Of a stretch of 7,855 nucleotides of DNA, positions 1-7,855 are shown one piece after another; position 1 is the stretch's first letter; every line of letters begins with the position of its first letter. A program made the translations under genes and the position numbers. The DNA comes from a virus (taxonomy: Duplodnaviria > Heunggongvirae > Uroviricota > Caudoviricetes), in the IMG/VR virus record IMGVR_UViG_648276668_000013. One strand, written 5' to 3'. The notes under the pieces were generated by a model. That model was given only the letters and a program-made list of their open reading frames with translations, searched no databases and had not been told where the DNA came from.

Positions 1-567
1 ATGCTTATTGGCTATGTACGCGTGTCAACAAATGACCAGAACACCGATTTGCAACGTAATGCACTGAACTGCGCGGGATGTGAGCGGATTTTTGAGGACA
101 AAATCAGTGGCACTAAGTCCGACAGACCGGGGCTTAAAAAACTGCTCAGGACACTATCGGCAGGAGACACGCTGGTTGTCTGGAAGCTGGACAGGTTGGG
201 GCGCAGTATGCGGCATCTTGTTACGCTGATAGAAGAGTTGCGCCAGCGCGGCGTGAATTTCCGAAGCCTGACTGACAGTATTGATACCAGTACCCCAATG
301 GGCCGTTTCTTTTTTCATGTCATGGGTGCCCTGGCTGAAATGGAACGCGAACTGATAGTTGAACGTACCAGGGCAGGGCTGGCTGCAGCTCGTGCTAAAG
401 GCAGAGTAGGTGGACGCCGTCCTAAGTTGACTACCGAACAGTGGGCACAGATTGGGCGTTTACTCGAGGCCGGAGAATCAAGACAGCGTATTGCACTGAT
501 TTTTGATGTAGGCGTTTCTACCATTTATAGAAAATTTCCGGCAAATAAGAGCAATGAATCTCCCTGA
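1..567 (+). CDS. Serine-recombinase DNA invertase, Gin/Pin/Hin/Cin family (188 aa); the window begins exactly at its ATG
   Basis: N-terminus MLIGYVRVSTNDQNTDLQRNAL carries the catalytic-serine motif and the whole protein is near-collinear with Mu Gin and e14 Pin as recalled (GDTLVVWKLDRLGRSM, DTSTPMGRFFFHVMGALAEMERELI, C-terminal helix-turn-helix around GVSTIYRKF). Length is typical for this family. Confidence 0.9.
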   Translation: MLIGYVRVSTNDQNTDLQRNALNCAGCERIFEDKISGTKSDRPGLKKLLRTLSAGDTLVVWKLDRLGRSMRHLVTLIEELRQRGVNFRSLTDSIDTSTPMGRFFFHVMGALAEMERELIVERTRAGLAAARAKGRVGGRRPKLTTEQWAQIGRLLEAGESRQRIALIFDVGVSTIYRKFPANKSNESP

Positions 568-709: not shown

Positions 710-1881
710 ATGGCTCAGGATTACCACCACGGAGTGCGCGTTGTTGAAGTCAACGAAGGCACTCGATCCATTACCACGGTGAGCACCGCCATCGTGGGTA
801 TGGTCTGCACGGGCGATGATGCCGATGCAAAAATGTTTCCTCTTAATAAACCCGTGCTGATCACTGATGTGCTGACTGCCAGCGGTAAAGCGGGTGAGTC
901 TGGTACTCTGGCCCGTTCGTTGGATGCCATCGCTGACCAGGCAAAACCCGTGACCGTTGTTGTGCGTGTGCCGCAGGGTGAAACGGAAGAAGAAACCACG
1001 ACCAATATCATCGGCGCAGTGACTGCTGAAGGTAAAAAACAGGCATGAAAGCTCTGTTATCTGCCCAGTCACAGCTCGGCGTTAAACCGCGCATTCTCGG
1101 CGTGCCTGGCCACGATAACAAAGCCGTTGCGACTGAGTTGCTGAGCGTGGCGCAAAGCCTGCGTGGGTTTGCTTACCTGTCAGCGTATGGCTGCAAGACA
1201 GTGCAGGAGGCGATCACTTACCGCGAAAACTTCAGCCAGCGCGAAGGGATGCTGATCTGGCCTGACTTTACTGGCTGGGACACGGTGCTGAATGCCGAAG
1301 CAACGGCATATGCCACCGCCCGTGCGCTCGGTCTGCGCGCCAAAATTGATGAGCAGACTGGATGGCACAAAAGCCTGTCCAACGTGGGCGTGAACGGTGT
1401 CACCGGAATTTCTGCTGATGTGTTCTGGGATCTGCAGGACCCGGCAACCGATGCAGGTCTGCTGAACCAGAACGACGTCACCACGCTTGTGCGCAAGGAT
1501 GGTTTTCGCTTCTGGGGTTCCCGCTGTCTGAGCGATGATCCGCTCTTTGCCTTCGAAAACTTCACCCGCACGGCGCAGGTGCTGACGGACACGATGGCAG
1601 AAGCGCACATGTGGGCGGTGGACAAACCGCTGAACCCGTCGCTGGCGCGCGACATTATCGAAGGTATCCGCGCCAAAATGCGCAGCCTGGTCAGTCAGGG
1701 CTATCTCATTGGTGGTGATTGCTGGCTGGACGAGTCGGTGAACGATAAAGACACGCTGAAAGCCGGGAAGCTCACCATCGACTACGACTACACGCCAGTG
1801 CCGCCACTTGAAAACCTGATGCTGCGTCAGCGCATCACCGATCAGTACCTGGTGAATTTCTCCAGCCAGGTCAGCGCGTAA
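710..1881 (+). pseudogene. FI: Phage contractile tail sheath protein (P2 FI homolog), interrupted by a frameshift; ORF fragments 710..1048 (112 aa) and 1045..1881 (278 aa)
   Basis: Both fragments are collinear with P2 FI as recalled: N-terminal [16 protein letters not shown]...[11 protein letters not shown]-terminal [11 protein letters not shown]...[22 protein letters not shown]. The combined length (about 390 aa) matches an intact sheath. The reading frame breaks in the A6 run at 1034-1039; one additional A would give the contiguous junction [17 protein letters not shown] ribosome-binding site at 695-700, 9 nt before the ATG at 710. Confidence 0.85.
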
Positions 1882-1890
1882 GGGGACAAT

Positions 1891-2406
1891 ATGGCTTTAC
1901 CACGCAAATTAAAACACCTGAACCTGTTTAACGACGGGAACAACTGGCAGGGGATCGTTGAGTCGCTGACGCTGCCGAAATTCACCCGCAAATATGAGAA
2001 GTATCGCGGCGGCGGTATGCCGGGGGCGGTGGATGTGGATTTGGGACTGGATGACAGTGCACTGGATACAGAATTTTCCATTGGTGGTACTGAGCTGCTG
2101 CTGTTTAAGCAGATGGGCAAAGCCACGGTGGATGGCATCCAGCTGCGCTTTACCGGCTCTATCCAGCGTGACGATACCGGGGAAGTGCAGGCTGTGGAGC
2201 TTGTGGTGCGTGGACGTCACAAAGAAGTGGATTCCGGCGAGTGGAAGACGGGCGAAAGCAACACCACCAAAGTGACCAGTACCAACAGCTACGCGAAGCT
2301 GACCATCAATGGTGAGGTGCTCTATGAAGTGGACCTTATCAACATGGTGGAAATTGTGGACGGTGTGGACCTGATGGAAGCGCACCGCAACGCCCTCGGC
2401 CTCTGA
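1891..2406 (+). CDS. FII: Phage tail tube protein (P2 FII homolog), 171 aa
   Basis: MALPRKLKHLNLFNDGNNWQG...KYEKYRGGGMPGAVDVD...RDDTGEVQAVE...RNALGL is collinear with P2 FII as recalled. AGGGGA ribosome-binding site at 1881-1886. It lies immediately downstream of the sheath gene, the conserved sheath-tube order. Confidence 0.92.
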   Translation: MALPRKLKHLNLFNDGNNWQGIVESLTLPKFTRKYEKYRGGGMPGAVDVDLGLDDSALDTEFSIGGTELLLFKQMGKATVDGIQLRFTGSIQRDDTGEVQAVELVVRGRHKEVDSGEWKTGESNTTKVTSTNSYAKLTINGEVLYEVDLINMVEIVDGVDLMEAHRNALGL

Positions 2407-2460
2407 TGTATCTGAACGGCGAGGGATACCGCGCCAGAACCCAATTTACAGGACAACAAA

Positions 2461-2763
2461 ATGAGCGATAAGCAGACTGAAAAGACCATTCAACTGGATA
2501 CCCCTATCAAGCGCGGTAAAACGGAAATCACCGAAATTGTGCTGCGTAAGCCGCAGTCCGGTGCGCTGCGCGGCACGCGCCTGCAGGCCATTATGGATAT
2601 GGATGTGAACGCGATGATGACCGTGATCCCCCGCATTTCCAGTCCGGTACTGACTGCACAGGAAATCGCAGAGATGGACCCGGCAGATCTCACCGCTATG
2701 TCGGTTGAGGTTGTCACTTTTTTGTTGAAGAAGTCGGTGCTTGCCGGTTTACCGACAGCCTGA
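2461..2763 (+). CDS. E: Tail assembly chaperone gpE (P2 E homolog), 100 aa; zero-frame product
   Basis: Small ORF between the tube and tape measure genes, the conserved position of the tail chaperone. It contains the slippery heptamer TTTTTTG near its 3' end, as in P2 E. Call rests on size, position and motif rather than strong recalled sequence identity. Confidence 0.8.
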   Translation: MSDKQTEKTIQLDTPIKRGKTEITEIVLRKPQSGALRGTRLQAIMDMDVNAMMTVIPRISSPVLTAQEIAEMDPADLTAMSVEVVTFLLKKSVLAGLPTA

Positions 2764-2897
2764 CGGTTGACGATCTGGTGGCAGACATCGCCACCATTTT
2801 TCACTGGCCGCCATCCGTTACTGACGTTATGCCGCTGACCGAAGTGCTGGAATGGCGGTATAAAGCGATTCAGAGAAGCGGGGCCAACGATGAGTGA
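2461..2897 (+). CDS. E+E': gpE+E' tail assembly chaperone fusion made by -1 programmed ribosomal frameshift at 2718-2724 (predicted about 145 aa); absent from the six-frame ORF track
   Basis: T TTT TTG sits in the E frame (codons TTT 2719-2721, TTG 2722-2724). After a -1 slip the frame stays open from 2724 to the TGA at 2895-2897, reading VEEVGACRFTDSLTVDDLVADIATIFHWPPSVTDVMPLTEVLEWRYKAIQRSGANDE, and ends just inside the start of T (ATG 2890). This copies the P2 E/E+E' arrangement. Confidence 0.65.
2718..2724 (+). other. -1 programmed ribosomal frameshift slippery heptamer T TTT TTG
   Basis: Direct reading of the sequence; X XXY YYZ-type heptamer in the gpE zero frame, with an open -1 frame downstream to 2897. 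Confidence 0.65.
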
Positions 2898-5800
2898 TAA
2901 CAACCTGCGGCTGCAGGTCATTCTTAATGCGGTTGACAAACTCACCCGCCCATTCCGTGTTGCACAGGCCAGTTCGAAAGAGCTGGCTGGCGCAATCAGA
3001 AACTCCCGTGACGCATTAAAGCAACTCAATCAGGCGGGTAATAGCCTGGAAAAATTTCGCAAGCTGCAGGCTGATAACAAGAAGTTAGGCGACAGGCTGA
3101 ACTATGCCAGACAGAAGGCTAATTTGCTTAGCTCTGAGCTGGAGGCGATGGAACAACCATCACAACGGCACCTTGTGGCTTTAGGTCGGCAAACGCTGGC
3201 AGTCCAACGCCTGGAAGAACAGCAAAAATATTTGCAGAAGCAAACGGCGCTTGTGCGTGCAGAACTGTACCGGGCGGGAATTTCTGCGAAAGATGATGCG
3301 GGAGCAACTGCCCGTTTAGCCCGTGAAACATCACGTTATAACCAGGAACTGTCGAAACAGGAGGCGCGGCTGAAGCGACTGGGGGAAGCTCAGCGCAGGA
3401 TGAATGCAGCGCGTGCCAGTTATGCCCGTTCGCTGGAGGTGCGCGATCGCATCGCAGGAGCCGGAGCAACCACCACGGCTGCAGGGCTGGCAGTGGGTGC
3501 ACCAGTAATGGCGGCGGTAAAAAGCTATACCAGCATGGAAGATGCCATGAAAGGTGTGGCAAAGCAGGTCAATGGTCTGCGTGACGATAATGGCAACCGC
3601 ACTGCACGTTTTTATGAAATGCAGGATGCCATCAAGGCTGCCAGCGAACAGTTGCCGATGGAAAACGGTGCGGTGGATTTCGCTGCACTGGTTGAAGGTG
3701 GTGCGCGCATGAACGTCGCAAACCCTGACGACAGCTGGGAAGACCAGAAACGTGACCTGCTGGCCTTCGCCAGTACGGCAGCAAAGGCGGCAACAGCCTT
3801 TGAGCTGCCAGCGGATGAACTGTCAGAAAGTCTGGGGAAAATCGCCCAGCTCTACAAAATCCCTACCCGCAATATTGAACAGCTCGGCGATGCGCTGAAC
3901 TATCTGGATGATAACGCCATGTCGAAAGGGGCAGACATCATTGATGTCATGCAACGCCTGGGCGGTGTGGCTGATCGTCTGGATTATCGTAAAGCGGCGG
4001 CTCTGGGTTCCACCTTCCTGACATTGGGCGCTGCGCCAGAGGTTGCAGCCAGTGCAGCAAACGCGATGGTGCGTGAATTGTCCATTGCCACCATGCAAAG
4101 CAAGAGTTTCTTTGAAGGGATGAATCTGCTGAAACTCAATCCTGAAGTGATTGAAAAGCAGATGACGAAGGATGCGATGGGAACCATCCAGCGCGTGCTG
4201 GAGAAGGTGAACGCACTGCCGCAGGACAAGCGTCTGTCTGCCATGACCATGTTGTTTGGTAAAGAGTTTGGTGATGACGCGGCGAAACTGGCAAACAACC
4301 TGCCGGAACTGCAGCGCCAGCTAAAACTGACAGCGGGCAATGATGCGCTCGGTTCCATGCAGAAAGAATCCGACATCAACAAAGACTCACTTTCTGCTCA
4401 GTGGTTGCTGGTCAAAACCGGAGCGCAGAACACCTTCAGCAGCCTGGGCGAAACGCTGCGCCAGCCGCTGATGGATATTCTGTACACGGTGAAAAGCATC
4501 ACGGGGGCGTTGCGCCGCTGGGTGGAAGCTAACCCGGAACTGACAGGCACACTGATGAAAGTAGCGGCTGTTGTGGCTGCGGTTACCGTAGGCCTCGGCA
4601 CCTTAGCGGTGGCGCTGGCTGCAGTTCTGGGGCCGCTGGCAGTGATCCGTCTGGGATTCTCTGTGCTGGGTATCAAAACGTTACCTTCCGTTACGGCAGC
4701 AGTAACTCGAACCAGCAGCGCGTTGTCCTGGCTGGCTGGCGCACCACTGGCACTGCTGCGACGCGGGCTTGCTTCATCGGGCAACGCCGCAGGTTTACTT
4801 ACTGCGCCGTTGTCGTCTTTGCGCCGCACGGCATCACTGACGGGAAATGTCCTGAAAACTGTAGCAGGTGCGCCGGTTGCACTTTTGCGGTCTGGATTAT
4901 CCGGTTTACGTGCTGTTGCTGTGATGTTTATGAATCCTCTGGCGGTACTGCGCGGTGGACTGGCCGCCGCAGGCACGGTGCTGCGAGTACTGGCATCTGG
5001 TCCACTGGCGATGCTGCGCGTTGCCCTGTATGCCGTATCTGGTCTGTTAGGTGCTCTGCTCAGTCCGATAGGTCTTGTGGTTACTGCACTGGCGGGCGTG
5101 GCGCTGGTTGTGTGGAAATACTGGCAACCCATCACCGCATTTCTTGGTGGCGTGGTGGAAGGATTCAAAGCGGCGGCAGGTCCCGTCAGTGCAGCATTCG
5201 AACCGCTTAAGCCCGTGTTCCAGTGGATTGGCGACAAAGTACAGGCGCTGTGGGGCTGGTTTACTGATCTGCTGACGCCCGTTAAGTCGACCTCTGCCGA
5301 ACTGCAGAGTGCAGCGGCAATGGGGCGGAGATTCGGGGAGGCACTGGCGGAAGGGCTGAATATGGTCATGCATCCGCTGGACTCACTGAAATCCGGCGTT
5401 TCCTGGTTGCTGGAGAAGCTCGGCATTGTCAGTAAAGAGGCCGCAAAGGCAAAACTGCCGGAAAGCGTGACGCGTCAGCAACCTGCGACGGTGAATGCAG
5501 ACGGTAAAGTGATGATGCCATCGGGTGATTTTCCGTCATGGGGATATGGCTTTGCGGGGATGTATGACAGCGGCGGCTATATCCCGCGTGGGCAGTTTGG
5601 CATCGTCGGTGAAAACGGGCCGGAAATTGTTAACGGCCCGGCAAACGTGACCAGCCGGAGAAATACAGCTGCACTGGCTGCCGTTGTCGCCGGAATGATG
5701 GGTGTTGCTGCCGCGCCAGCAGAGCTTCCACCGTTGCATCCTTTGGCGCTTCCCGCGAAAGGCGGTGAAGCAATTGTGAGTCGCGCAGCCACTGTGCCGC

Positions 5801-5967
5801 CTGTTTACCGGATTGAAGCACCGATGCAGATCATCATCCAGACACAGCCAGGACAAAGTGCGCAGGATATTGCGCGGGAGGTGGCCCGCCAGCTTGATGA
5901 ACGTGAACGCAGGCTGAAGGCAAAAGCCAGGAGTAACTACAGCGATCAGGGGGGATACGACGCATGA
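2890..5967 (+). CDS. T: Tail tape measure protein (P2 T homolog), 1025 aa
   Basis: Largest ORF in the operon, directly after the E/E' frameshift cassette. N-terminal region is coiled-coil-like and rich in Q/E/K/R/L/A. Central hydrophobic block carries repeated G-P-L-A-x-L-R-x-G-L units (about 4620-5040). Position and architecture are typical of Myoviridae tape measure proteins. Confidence 0.9.
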   Translation: MSDNNLRLQVILNAVDKLTRPFRVAQASSKELAGAIRNSRDALKQLNQAGNSLEKFRKLQADNKKLGDRLNYARQKANLLSSELEAMEQPSQRHLVALGRQTLAVQRLEEQQKYLQKQTALVRAELYRAGISAKDDAGATARLARETSRYNQELSKQEARLKRLGEAQRRMNAARASYARSLEVRDRIAGAGATTTAAGLAVGAPVMAAVKSYTSMEDAMKGVAKQVNGLRDDNGNRTARFYEMQDAIKAASEQLPMENGAVDFAALVEGGARMNVANPDDSWEDQKRDLLAFASTAAKAATAFELPADELSESLGKIAQLYKIPTRNIEQLGDALNYLDDNAMSKGADIIDVMQRLGGVADRLDYRKAAALGSTFLTLGAAPEVAASAANAMVRELSIATMQSKSFFEGMNLLKLNPEVIEKQMTKDAMGTIQRVLEKVNALPQDKRLSAMTMLFGKEFGDDAAKLANNLPELQRQLKLTAGNDALGSMQKESDINKDSLSAQWLLVKTGAQNTFSSLGETLRQPLMDILYTVKSITGALRRWVEANPELTGTLMKVAAVVAAVTVGLGTLAVALAAVLGPLAVIRLGFSVLGIKTLPSVTAAVTRTSSALSWLAGAPLALLRRGLASSGNAAGLLTAPLSSLRRTASLTGNVLKTVAGAPVALLRSGLSGLRAVAVMFMNPLAVLRGGLAAAGTVLRVLASGPLAMLRVALYAVSGLLGALLSPIGLVVTALAGVALVVWKYWQPITAFLGGVVEGFKAAAGPVSAAFEPLKPVFQWIGDKVQALWGWFTDLLTPVKSTSAELQSAAAMGRRFGEALAEGLNMVMHPLDSLKSGVSWLLEKLGIVSKEAAKAKLPESVTRQQPATVNADGKVMMPSGDFPSWGYGFAGMYDSGGYIPRGQFGIVGENGPEIVNGPANVTSRRNTAALAAVVAGMMGVAAAPAELPPLHPLALPAKGGEAIVSRAATVPPVYRIEAPMQIIIQTQPGQSAQDIAREVARQLDERERRLKAKARSNYSDQGGYDA

Positions 5968-6449
5968 TGATGGTGCTGGGATTTTACGTGTTTATGCTGC
6001 GCACCGTGCCGTATCAGGAGCTGCAGTATCAACGCAGCTGGCGACATGCGGCAAACAGCCGGGTAAACCGACGTCCGTCCACGCAGTTTCTGGGACCGGA
6101 CAACGACATGCTGACGCTTTCTGGTGTTCTTATGCCGGAGATAACAGGTGGCAGGCTGTCGTTGCTGGCACTGGAGCAGATGGCAGAACAGGGGAAAGCA
6201 TGGCCCCTGATTGAAGGCAGCGGCACCATTTACGGCATGTATGTGATTGAGGGAATAAATCAGACTAAAACGGAGTTTTTCCGCGATGGTATGCCGCGCC
6301 GGATTGAGTTCACCCTGTCGCTCAAACGGGTGGATGAATCCCTGTCCGATATGTTCGGTGATCTCAGTACGCAACTGAATAATCTGCAGGATACGGCAAC
6401 GTCTGCCTTAAGCGATATCGGTAAAACGGTGGGAGGGCTGCTGTCGTGA
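5964..6449 (+). CDS. U: Tail protein gpU (P2 U homolog), 161 aa
   Basis: MMMVLGFYVFMLRTVPYQ...WPLIEGSGTIYGMYVI...FTLSLKRVDESL is collinear with P2 gpU as recalled. GGGGGGA ribosome-binding site at 5948-5954. Its start overlaps the T stop (ATGA at 5964-5967). Confidence 0.88.
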   Translation: MMMVLGFYVFMLRTVPYQELQYQRSWRHAANSRVNRRPSTQFLGPDNDMLTLSGVLMPEITGGRLSLLALEQMAEQGKAWPLIEGSGTIYGMYVIEGINQTKTEFFRDGMPRRIEFTLSLKRVDESLSDMFGDLSTQLNNLQDTATSALSDIGKTVGGLLS

Positions 6450-7546
6450 ATTTCAGCTCTGAACTGCTTAACAAAGGCAACAAAACTCCGGCATTCAGCA
6501 TCAGTATTGAGGGCAGGGATATCACCACTGTGCTGGATAACCGCCTGATGAGTCTGACGCTGACGGACAATCGGGGCTTTGAAGCGGACCAGCTTGATCT
6601 GGAACTGGATGATGCCGACGGAAAAATCGTGCTGCCGCGCCGAGGTGCGGTCATTACGCTGGCGCTAGGCTGGAAGGGGCAGCCGCTTTTCCCGAAAGGG
6701 ACATTCACGGTGGACGAGATTGAACACACTGGCGCACCGGACCGCCTGACTATCCGGGCGCGAAGTGCTGATTTTCGTGAAACGCTGAATACCCGCCGTG
6801 AAAAGTCGTGGCACAAGACCACTGTCGGGGAAGTGGTCAAGGAAATAGCCGCGCGTCACAAGCTGAAGATGGCACTGGGTAAAGACCTGTCGGATAAGCC
6901 CGTGGAACATATAGACCAGACTAATGAGAGTGACGGCAGTTTTCTGATGCGGCTGGCGCGCCAGTACGGTGCTATTGCGTCAGTGAAAAATGGCAATCTG
7001 TTATTCATCCGGCAGGGACAGGGTAAAAGCGCCAGCGGTAAACCACTGCCGGTGATCACTATCACACGTAAGGACGGCGACAGTCACCGCTTTACCCTGG
7101 CAGATCGCGGAGCCTATACGGGCGTAATTGCCAGCTGGTTGCATACCCGCGAACCCGCGAAGAAAGAAAGCACCACGGTGAAGCGTAAGCGCAGAACTAA
7201 GAAGCAGAAGAAAGAACCGGAAGCGAAGCAGGGCGATTACCTGGTGGGGACGGATGAAAACGTGCTGGTACTTAATCGCACTTATGCCAACCGGAGCAAC
7301 GCCGAACGAGCGGCGAAAATGCAGTGGGAACGCCTGCAACGCGGTGTTGCGTCATTCTCGCTACAACTGGCGGAAGGGCGGGCAGATCTCTACACGGAAA
7401 TGCCAGTGAAAGTCAGTGGCTTTAAGCAGCCGATAGATGATGCGGAATGGACCATTACGACTCTGACGCATACCGTCAGCCCGGATAACGGTTTTACGAC
7501 CAGTCTGGAGCTTGAAGTGAGGATTGATGATTTCGAAATGGAATGA
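6446..7546 (+). CDS. D: Tail protein gpD (P2 D homolog, late control gene D family), 366 aa; GTG start
   Basis: Conserved position after U with a length typical of the gpD family. GGGAGGG ribosome-binding site at 6431-6437, 8 nt before the GTG at 6446, which overlaps the U stop (GTGA). Identity rests mainly on synteny and size. Confidence 0.88.
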   Translation: MNFSSELLNKGNKTPAFSISIEGRDITTVLDNRLMSLTLTDNRGFEADQLDLELDDADGKIVLPRRGAVITLALGWKGQPLFPKGTFTVDEIEHTGAPDRLTIRARSADFRETLNTRREKSWHKTTVGEVVKEIAARHKLKMALGKDLSDKPVEHIDQTNESDGSFLMRLARQYGAIASVKNGNLLFIRQGQGKSASGKPLPVITITRKDGDSHRFTLADRGAYTGVIASWLHTREPAKKESTTVKRKRRTKKQKKEPEAKQGDYLVGTDENVLVLNRTYANRSNAERAAKMQWERLQRGVASFSLQLAEGRADLYTEMPVKVSGFKQPIDDAEWTITTLTHTVSPDNGFTTSLELEVRIDDFEME

Positions 7547-7636: not shown

Positions 7637-7855
7637 ATGATGATTTGCCCACTGTGTGGAAGTGCCGCCCATACTCGCAGCAGTTTTCAGGTATCTTCAT
7701 TGACCAAAGAGCGTTACAACCAGTGCCAGAACATTAACTGCAGCCATACTTTTGTTACCCATGAAACTTTTGTTCGTTCGATTGCAACGCCAAAAGAGTC
7801 AAATCCGGTTCAGCCGCATCCAATGAAATCAGGACAGGTGGCGCTCTCTCTTTGA
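7637..7855 (+). CDS. ogr: Ogr-family zinc-finger late transcriptional activator (72 aa from ATG 7637; the ORF track's upstream ATG at 7604 is probably not the real start)
   Basis: MMICPLCGSAAHTRSS...KERYNQCQNINCSHTF...PHPMKSGQ matches P2 Ogr as recalled, including the C-x2-C...C-x4-C zinc finger and a 72-aa length. GGGGAGA ribosome-binding site at 7621-7627, 9 nt before the ATG at 7637. It occupies the P2 position immediately after D. Confidence 0.85.
   Translation: MMICPLCGSAAHTRSSFQVSSLTKERYNQCQNINCSHTFVTHETFVRSIATPKESNPVQPHPMKSGQVALSL

Follow-up and report, generated by a model that had tools for sequence, protein, structure and literature searches.

Can a tail sheath gene be taken at face value when it is written as two overlapping open reading frames with the break in a run of six A's? 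This is the question raised by the window, by which we mean the whole 7,855-nt stretch of viral DNA that was analysed. We think that the answer is an ordinary one, and that the A6 at 1034-1039 almost certainly does not reflect the biology of the element. There are other ways to explain such a run, from a genuine mutation to a site of recoding, and each has to be weighed against what related prophages carry at the same position.

One sheath gene in two pieces

The features of the window that matter here are as follows.

1..567, + strand: serine DNA invertase (Gin/Hin/Pin type) of a tail-fibre inversion switch; Pfam Resolvase and HTH_7; DNA invertase in Cartapus
710..1881, + strand: tail sheath gene, P2-type (FI homologue); one gene, two ORFs as written
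1034..1039, + strand: A6 homopolymer, site of the apparent -1 deletion; A7 in intact relatives
1045..1048, + strand: ATGA overlap; TGA at 1046-1048 is the premature stop of the N-terminal fragment, and 1045-1047 is a Met codon
1891..2406, + strand: tail tube gene (FII homologue), intact; PF04985 Phage_tube
2461..2763, + strand: tail assembly chaperone gene E; -1 frameshift product E+E' to 2897
2890..5967, + strand: tape measure gene T, intact
5964..6449, + strand: gene U, intact
6446..7546, + strand: gene D, intact
7637..7855, + strand: Ogr gene, intact

The two frames in the sheath region belong to a single P2-type (FI) tail-sheath gene, of which 710..1048 (112 aa) is the first part and 1045..1881 (278 aa) the second. 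The initial annotation had proposed this, had placed the change of frame in the A6 at 1034-1039 and had predicted the junction and the intact gene of about 390 aa that seven A's would give, and on all three points it was right. The run consists of exactly six A's, in the context ggtAAAAAAcagg, and it is here that the relatives differ by one A: Escherichia coli PK8568 and phage Cartapus have the same 91 bases around the run as the window, but with A7, and in both of them the gene is a single 390-aa CDS annotated as 'phage tail sheath protein'. Adding one A to the window produces the predicted junction and restores a CDS of 1173 nt and 390 aa, and exactly this protein is found on 25 other contigs of the public collection. 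An uninterrupted ORF of some 390 codons is thus absent from the window as written, where it is split at 1046-1048, and present in all of the A7 relatives. The methionine encoded at 1045-1047, at which ORF finders take the C-terminal fragment to start, is in the intact protein simply an internal residue.

Domain content tells the same story. The N-terminal fragment matches Pfam Gp18_domIII_N and the C-terminal fragment matches Phage_sheath_1 and Phage_sheath_1C, while the restored protein matches all three, at 43.4 bits (gathering cut-off 27), 113.4 bits (cut-off 31.4) and 80.6 bits (cut-off 26.9), respectively. In the restored protein Phage_sheath_1 is matched from residue 108 onwards, which places the break within a domain. 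Do sheath proteins of this type ever end near residue 112, as the shorter fragment does? Residues 5-383 of the restored protein align with residues 3-381 of the R2 pyocin sheath PA0622 (3J9Q chain A, 386 aa; E = 3.9e-68), free of gaps at the junction, and this end-to-end alignment means that the homologues do not end there.

The TA143 draft and a near-identical prophage

Where, then, does the six-A form come from? The exact 278-aa C-terminal fragment is known from a single contig, GL884207.1, a scaffold of the assembly GCA_000176615.2. This assembly is the draft genome of E. coli TA143, a strain whose host was a Tasmanian devil (PMC4422515). In that draft the sheath is split into two annotated proteins, EGI32635 and EGI32636, the second of which (EGI32636.1, 'phage tail sheath protein [Escherichia coli TA143]') is the 278-aa fragment itself. 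The sheath is not the only gene to be broken there, and two more are split within the 20.8 kb around it. Upstream of the window, the gene for the tail fibre is in pieces of 53 and 440 aa, with A6 where relatives have A5 (near 6494 of the TA143 locus, L003), and the chromosomal antiporter gene ybjL downstream is in pieces of 468 and 92 aa, with A7 where PK8568 has A8 (near 18474). Elsewhere ybjL encodes 561 aa, in each of the six further called loci that contain it and are not visibly error-rich. A fourth difference lies in ybjM (near 19240), which reads CGT8 in TA143 and CTGT7 in all other covering loci except L005, which has CTGT6. All three of the indels, in sheath, fibre and ybjL, disrupt reading frames, and it is this clustering of breaks that indicates an artefact. 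The earlier impression that the rest of the tail operon is intact stands inside the window, but it fails just upstream on the same scaffold, where a homopolymer indel breaks the fibre gene.

The most telling comparison is with a twin (L016; GCA_016760575.1, JACHOY010000007.1), which was found through the D protein of the window. It has this prophage too, integrated in the same position on the ybjL side, and here the run is A7, the 390-aa sheath and the fibre gene are unbroken and ybjL encodes 561 aa. This is the comparison with the same prophage in related strains that the initial annotation had suggested. Over an alignment of 19,289 bases, covering the tail genes and about 9.7 kb of chromosome, the two differ in the sheath (A6 in TA143, A7 in the twin), in ybjL (A7 and A8), in the fibre gene (A6 and A5) and in ybjM (CGT8 and CTGT7). 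There is one further mismatch, at the edge of an inverted fibre segment, and apart from this the 19.3 kb contain no ordinary substitutions away from runs. Once restored, the TA143 sheath CDS is identical to that of the twin at 1173 of 1173 bases.

The differences also depend on the length of the run. When runs are counted by their length in the twin, TA143 is discordant at the single run of eight, at two of five runs of seven, at none of 17 runs of six, at one of 48 runs of five and at none of 173 runs of four; in other words, at 3/6 runs of seven or more as against 1/238 runs of four to six. TA143 stands apart from every other covering locus at all four sites, bar L005, an error-rich assembly whose run lengths there are different again. 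Errors that are confined to homopolymers, that become more frequent with run length, that go in both directions and that come with zero substitutions are the signature of flow-based base-calling and not of evolution. The ybjM change, too, would read as one single-T flow lost and one T gained in the next T-flow, an event that would come naturally in flow space and be awkward as a mutation.

On this comparative evidence, we consider it very probable that the TA143 sheath frameshift is a homopolymer undercall in the draft assembly. The A7 of an intact sheath gene would have been read as A6 in GCA_000176615.2, scaffold GL884207.1, and living TA143 would most likely have a normal 390-aa FI-type sheath gene in an intact tail operon. 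The cause may well have been flow-based (454-type) sequencing, judging from the error pattern and from the practice of the Broad Institute, whose E. coli drafts of 2010-11 were probably made with 454. Of its three options, the initial annotation had preferred an error or else a lesion of very recent date, and the twin comparison, the outlier status of TA143 and the dependence on run length now strongly favour the first of these.

What of the second? It might be that a real and recent -1 replication slippage in A7 inactivated the sheath, leaving the TA143 prophage newly defective and unable to make a contractile tail. As is generally appreciated, A7 runs are natural hot spots for slippage, a prophage gene in a lysogen is free of selection, and the intact state of the other operon genes in the window would fit a recent lesion. 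The same lesion is also found in assemblies without any other broken gene in 20 kb (L007, a Logan assembly, and L013 and L014), and the twin is not necessarily the same strain as TA143, which leaves room for a very recent mutation in the latter. However, this account requires that three frameshifts arose independently, one of them in chromosomal ybjL, together with a GT/TG swap, that every one of these changes fell at a homopolymer, and that they came about with zero ordinary substitutions relative to the twin over 19.3 kb; RefSeq complete genomes, moreover, lack the A6 form in the three allele contexts tested (see below). We regard it as unlikely. We also considered that TA143 might be a mutator. 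In mutation accumulation, even mismatch-repair-deficient E. coli gain more substitutions than indels. One gene each for MutS and MutL is recorded in TA143 (PMC3774996), and the strain shows no ordinary substitutions against the twin, which makes the mutator explanation an unlikely one.

For users of the draft, the practical message is a caution. The TA143 assembly splits a sheath gene that is very probably intact, as it does the tail-fibre gene and chromosomal ybjL, and it would be misleading to score the prophage as defective or to count pseudogenes in this draft. Were the lesion real after all, it would amount to no more than an ordinary case of a common P2-like prophage that was inactivated very recently, and neither an artefact nor a real lesion raises a new biological question.

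The same one-base loss in other assemblies

TA143 does not stand alone. The exact 112-aa N-terminal fragment is found on 69 contigs (the index of the collection lists it in 111 blocks), and in the ten places that we inspected the run is one base short in every case, so that at least nine other assemblies carry the one-base loss (L005 and L007-L014, at about 10319-10330 in each). In one of these, L008, the shortened run is A7 and that of an intact gene would be A8, owing to a GGA codon. The sheath alleles of the ten carriers differ from each other at 25-57 of 1173 bases, with the exception of a near-identical pair (L009 and L010, 3 differences), and the prophages that hold them occupy two integration sites, on the ybjL side and on the smpB side. 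Because the alleles are diverse and the integration sites are two, the one-base loss must have arisen many times independently, be it in DNA or in base callers. The sheath of L013 is that of phage Cartapus in everything except the run, and we asked whether L013 might simply be a Cartapus lysogen, which would have allowed a virion to be set directly against an assembly; the rest of the prophage differs, however, with 145 mismatches in 8.6 kb, and the idea was dropped.

What sort of assemblies are these? Among the ten carriers and the accessions that could be named, most are drafts of 2010-12 (for example, E. coli 1827-70, Shigella boydii 4444-74 and another record with a GL-prefix scaffold) or long-read assemblies full of split genes. 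L005 and L011 are error-rich long-read assemblies, whereas L007, L013 and L014 are otherwise clean, and one carrier protein accession, EFS8563710.1, has a prefix that presumably (this is a guess) denotes short-read surveillance assemblies. The clean carriers and this accession suggest that real A6 alleles probably exist somewhere. Three allele contexts were compared with the RefSeq complete E. coli genomes, giving 713, 342 and 53 matching records; in none of them does the exact A6 66-mer occur, and the best matches were in each case 66/67 with A7. The test covers that exact 66-mer and is blind to an A6 allele with a nearby SNP. An exact A6 38-mer is likewise absent from the GTDB species-representative genomes, which says little at one genome per species. 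Our reading of the recurrence is that it would be mostly technical, at an error-prone A7, with occasional real slippage mutants likely, because an A7 in a prophage gene that is not under selection is an expected soft spot.

The recurrence also invites a more adventurous idea, namely phase variation, with the A-run as a contingency tract by which a population would switch its production of virions or tailocins on and off. The -1 state does recur independently in at least ten assemblies, on diverse alleles and at two integration sites, and the exact 112-aa fragment is, as noted, on 69 contigs; the off state is present in drafts and in Logan contigs of uncertain accuracy. We nevertheless hold this to be improbable in the extreme: the off state is missing from the RefSeq complete genomes in three contexts; most of the ten inspected carriers are old drafts or error-rich long-read assemblies; seven A's are, from general knowledge, short for a contingency tract; and the recurrence is partly a matter of ascertainment, because the loci were chosen for carrying the lesion. 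A related reading, in which the A7 of Elveevirus-type P2-like prophages is a slippage hot spot that repeatedly, and perhaps reversibly, turns off tail production in natural lysogens, strikes us as very unlikely; if it were true, the many independent A6 records would be in part biology and not sequencing error. Our preferred reading of TA143 itself remains the miscalled homopolymer.

The wider tail module and comparison with known systems

The rest of the window is a P2-like tail module. PK8568 and Escherichia phage Cartapus (Peduoviridae, Elveevirus) share its gene order, and a P2-type neighbourhood is present 3' of the sheath, with tube, E/E', tape measure, U, D and ogr.

Several observations from this module and its relatives may be recorded in their own right. 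The C-terminal segment of the tail fibre gene, beside the invertase, lies in opposite orientations in TA143 (L015, about 2062-3491) and in the twin (about 1643-3487), and such a flipped segment is what an active host-range inversion switch of the Gin/Hin type would produce. A TGT-N12-ACA dyad at 616-633 sits 77-94 bases upstream of the sheath start codon. We take this to be the form of the P2 Ogr-dependent late-promoter element, and the motif occurs three times in the window against 2.3 expected, which is not above chance. Within the tape-measure gene there is a 342-aa antisense ORF (4398-5426, - strand) that is probably a by-product of the composition of that gene, and in L010 (GCA_053183485.1, an A6 carrier) the tape-measure gene at 12181-15254 is called in two pieces of 648 and 347 aa, which could reflect a decaying prophage or a second assembly error.

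Related prophages also vary in what they carry between the S-like and V-like tail genes. In TA143 this slot holds a 307-aa ORF (L003, 2998-3921, - strand) with no Pfam match, in L007 a TIR_2-domain protein (3129-3929, + strand) and in L005 a DUF6216 protein (4536-4913, - strand), and a DUF2441 protein is found beside the invertase in L017 (2707-3579, - strand). By analogy, these variable cargo slots resemble the hot spots for accessory or defence genes that P2-like phages have.

This brings us to the last way of explaining the A6, as a site of recoding at which either a -1 ribosomal frameshift on AAA.AAA or a transcriptional slippage that adds an A would yield the full-length sheath. The initial annotation had kept slippage at the run as an option, and programmed slippage we now rule out for practical purposes. 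A -1 slip on AAA.AAA would, it is true, give the exact wild-type junction, KKTGM, and it is well known that the lysine tRNA is prone to shift on A-runs, as in dnaX (A.AAA.AAG). The two-ORF arrangement is not conserved, however, and every intact relative has a single ORF with A7 in frame. The phase of the run, GGT.AAA.AAA.CAG, gives the heptamer T.AAA.AAA and not one of the form X.XXY.YYZ; the 71 downstream bases (1040-1110) fold at -22 kcal/mol, with z = -0.62 against shuffles, which indicates no stimulatory structure; and six A's are, in general, too few for efficient transcriptional slippage. The sheath is also needed in large stoichiometric amounts, as the initial annotation had pointed out. 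The operon does contain a real site, the heptamer T.TTT.TTG at 2718-2724, which is canonical, in phase with gene E and kept in all 17 of the related loci that cover the gene, and the modelled -1 product, E+E', is open to 2897. This, and not the sheath run, is the genuine programmed -1 frameshift of the operon, and we give recoding at the A6 next to no credence.

How does the sheath locus compare with systems that are better understood? The frameshift of P2 E/E+E', the analogue of lambda G/GT, is a frameshift in the same operon, and here the contrast is clear, since the E site is a canonical in-phase heptamer that is conserved, whereas the sheath A6 is non-canonical and, for its allele, unique to the TA143 assembly. 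The slip site of dnaX shares with the sheath run its A-rich lysine codons. In dnaX, these form an in-phase heptamer that is flanked by a correctly spaced Shine-Dalgarno-like stimulator on the upstream side and by a hairpin on the downstream side, and the whole is conserved; at the sheath run we saw neither in-phase heptamer nor stimulator, hairpin or conservation. A further likeness is to the miscalls of 454 and Ion Torrent (both flow-based) and of early nanopore sequencing, which give rise to spurious frameshifts in draft assemblies; they make the same single-base changes in homopolymers, depend on run length, include both under- and over-calls and break conserved genes, and from this pattern that of TA143 shows no difference. 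Finally, P2 gpFI and the R2 pyocin sheath PA0622 are counterparts of the restored protein, which has all three of the Pfam domains of a sheath, aligns with PA0622 from end to end and is encoded in a gene order that matches P2-like phages such as Cartapus; the difference is that the gene of the window is, as written, in two pieces.
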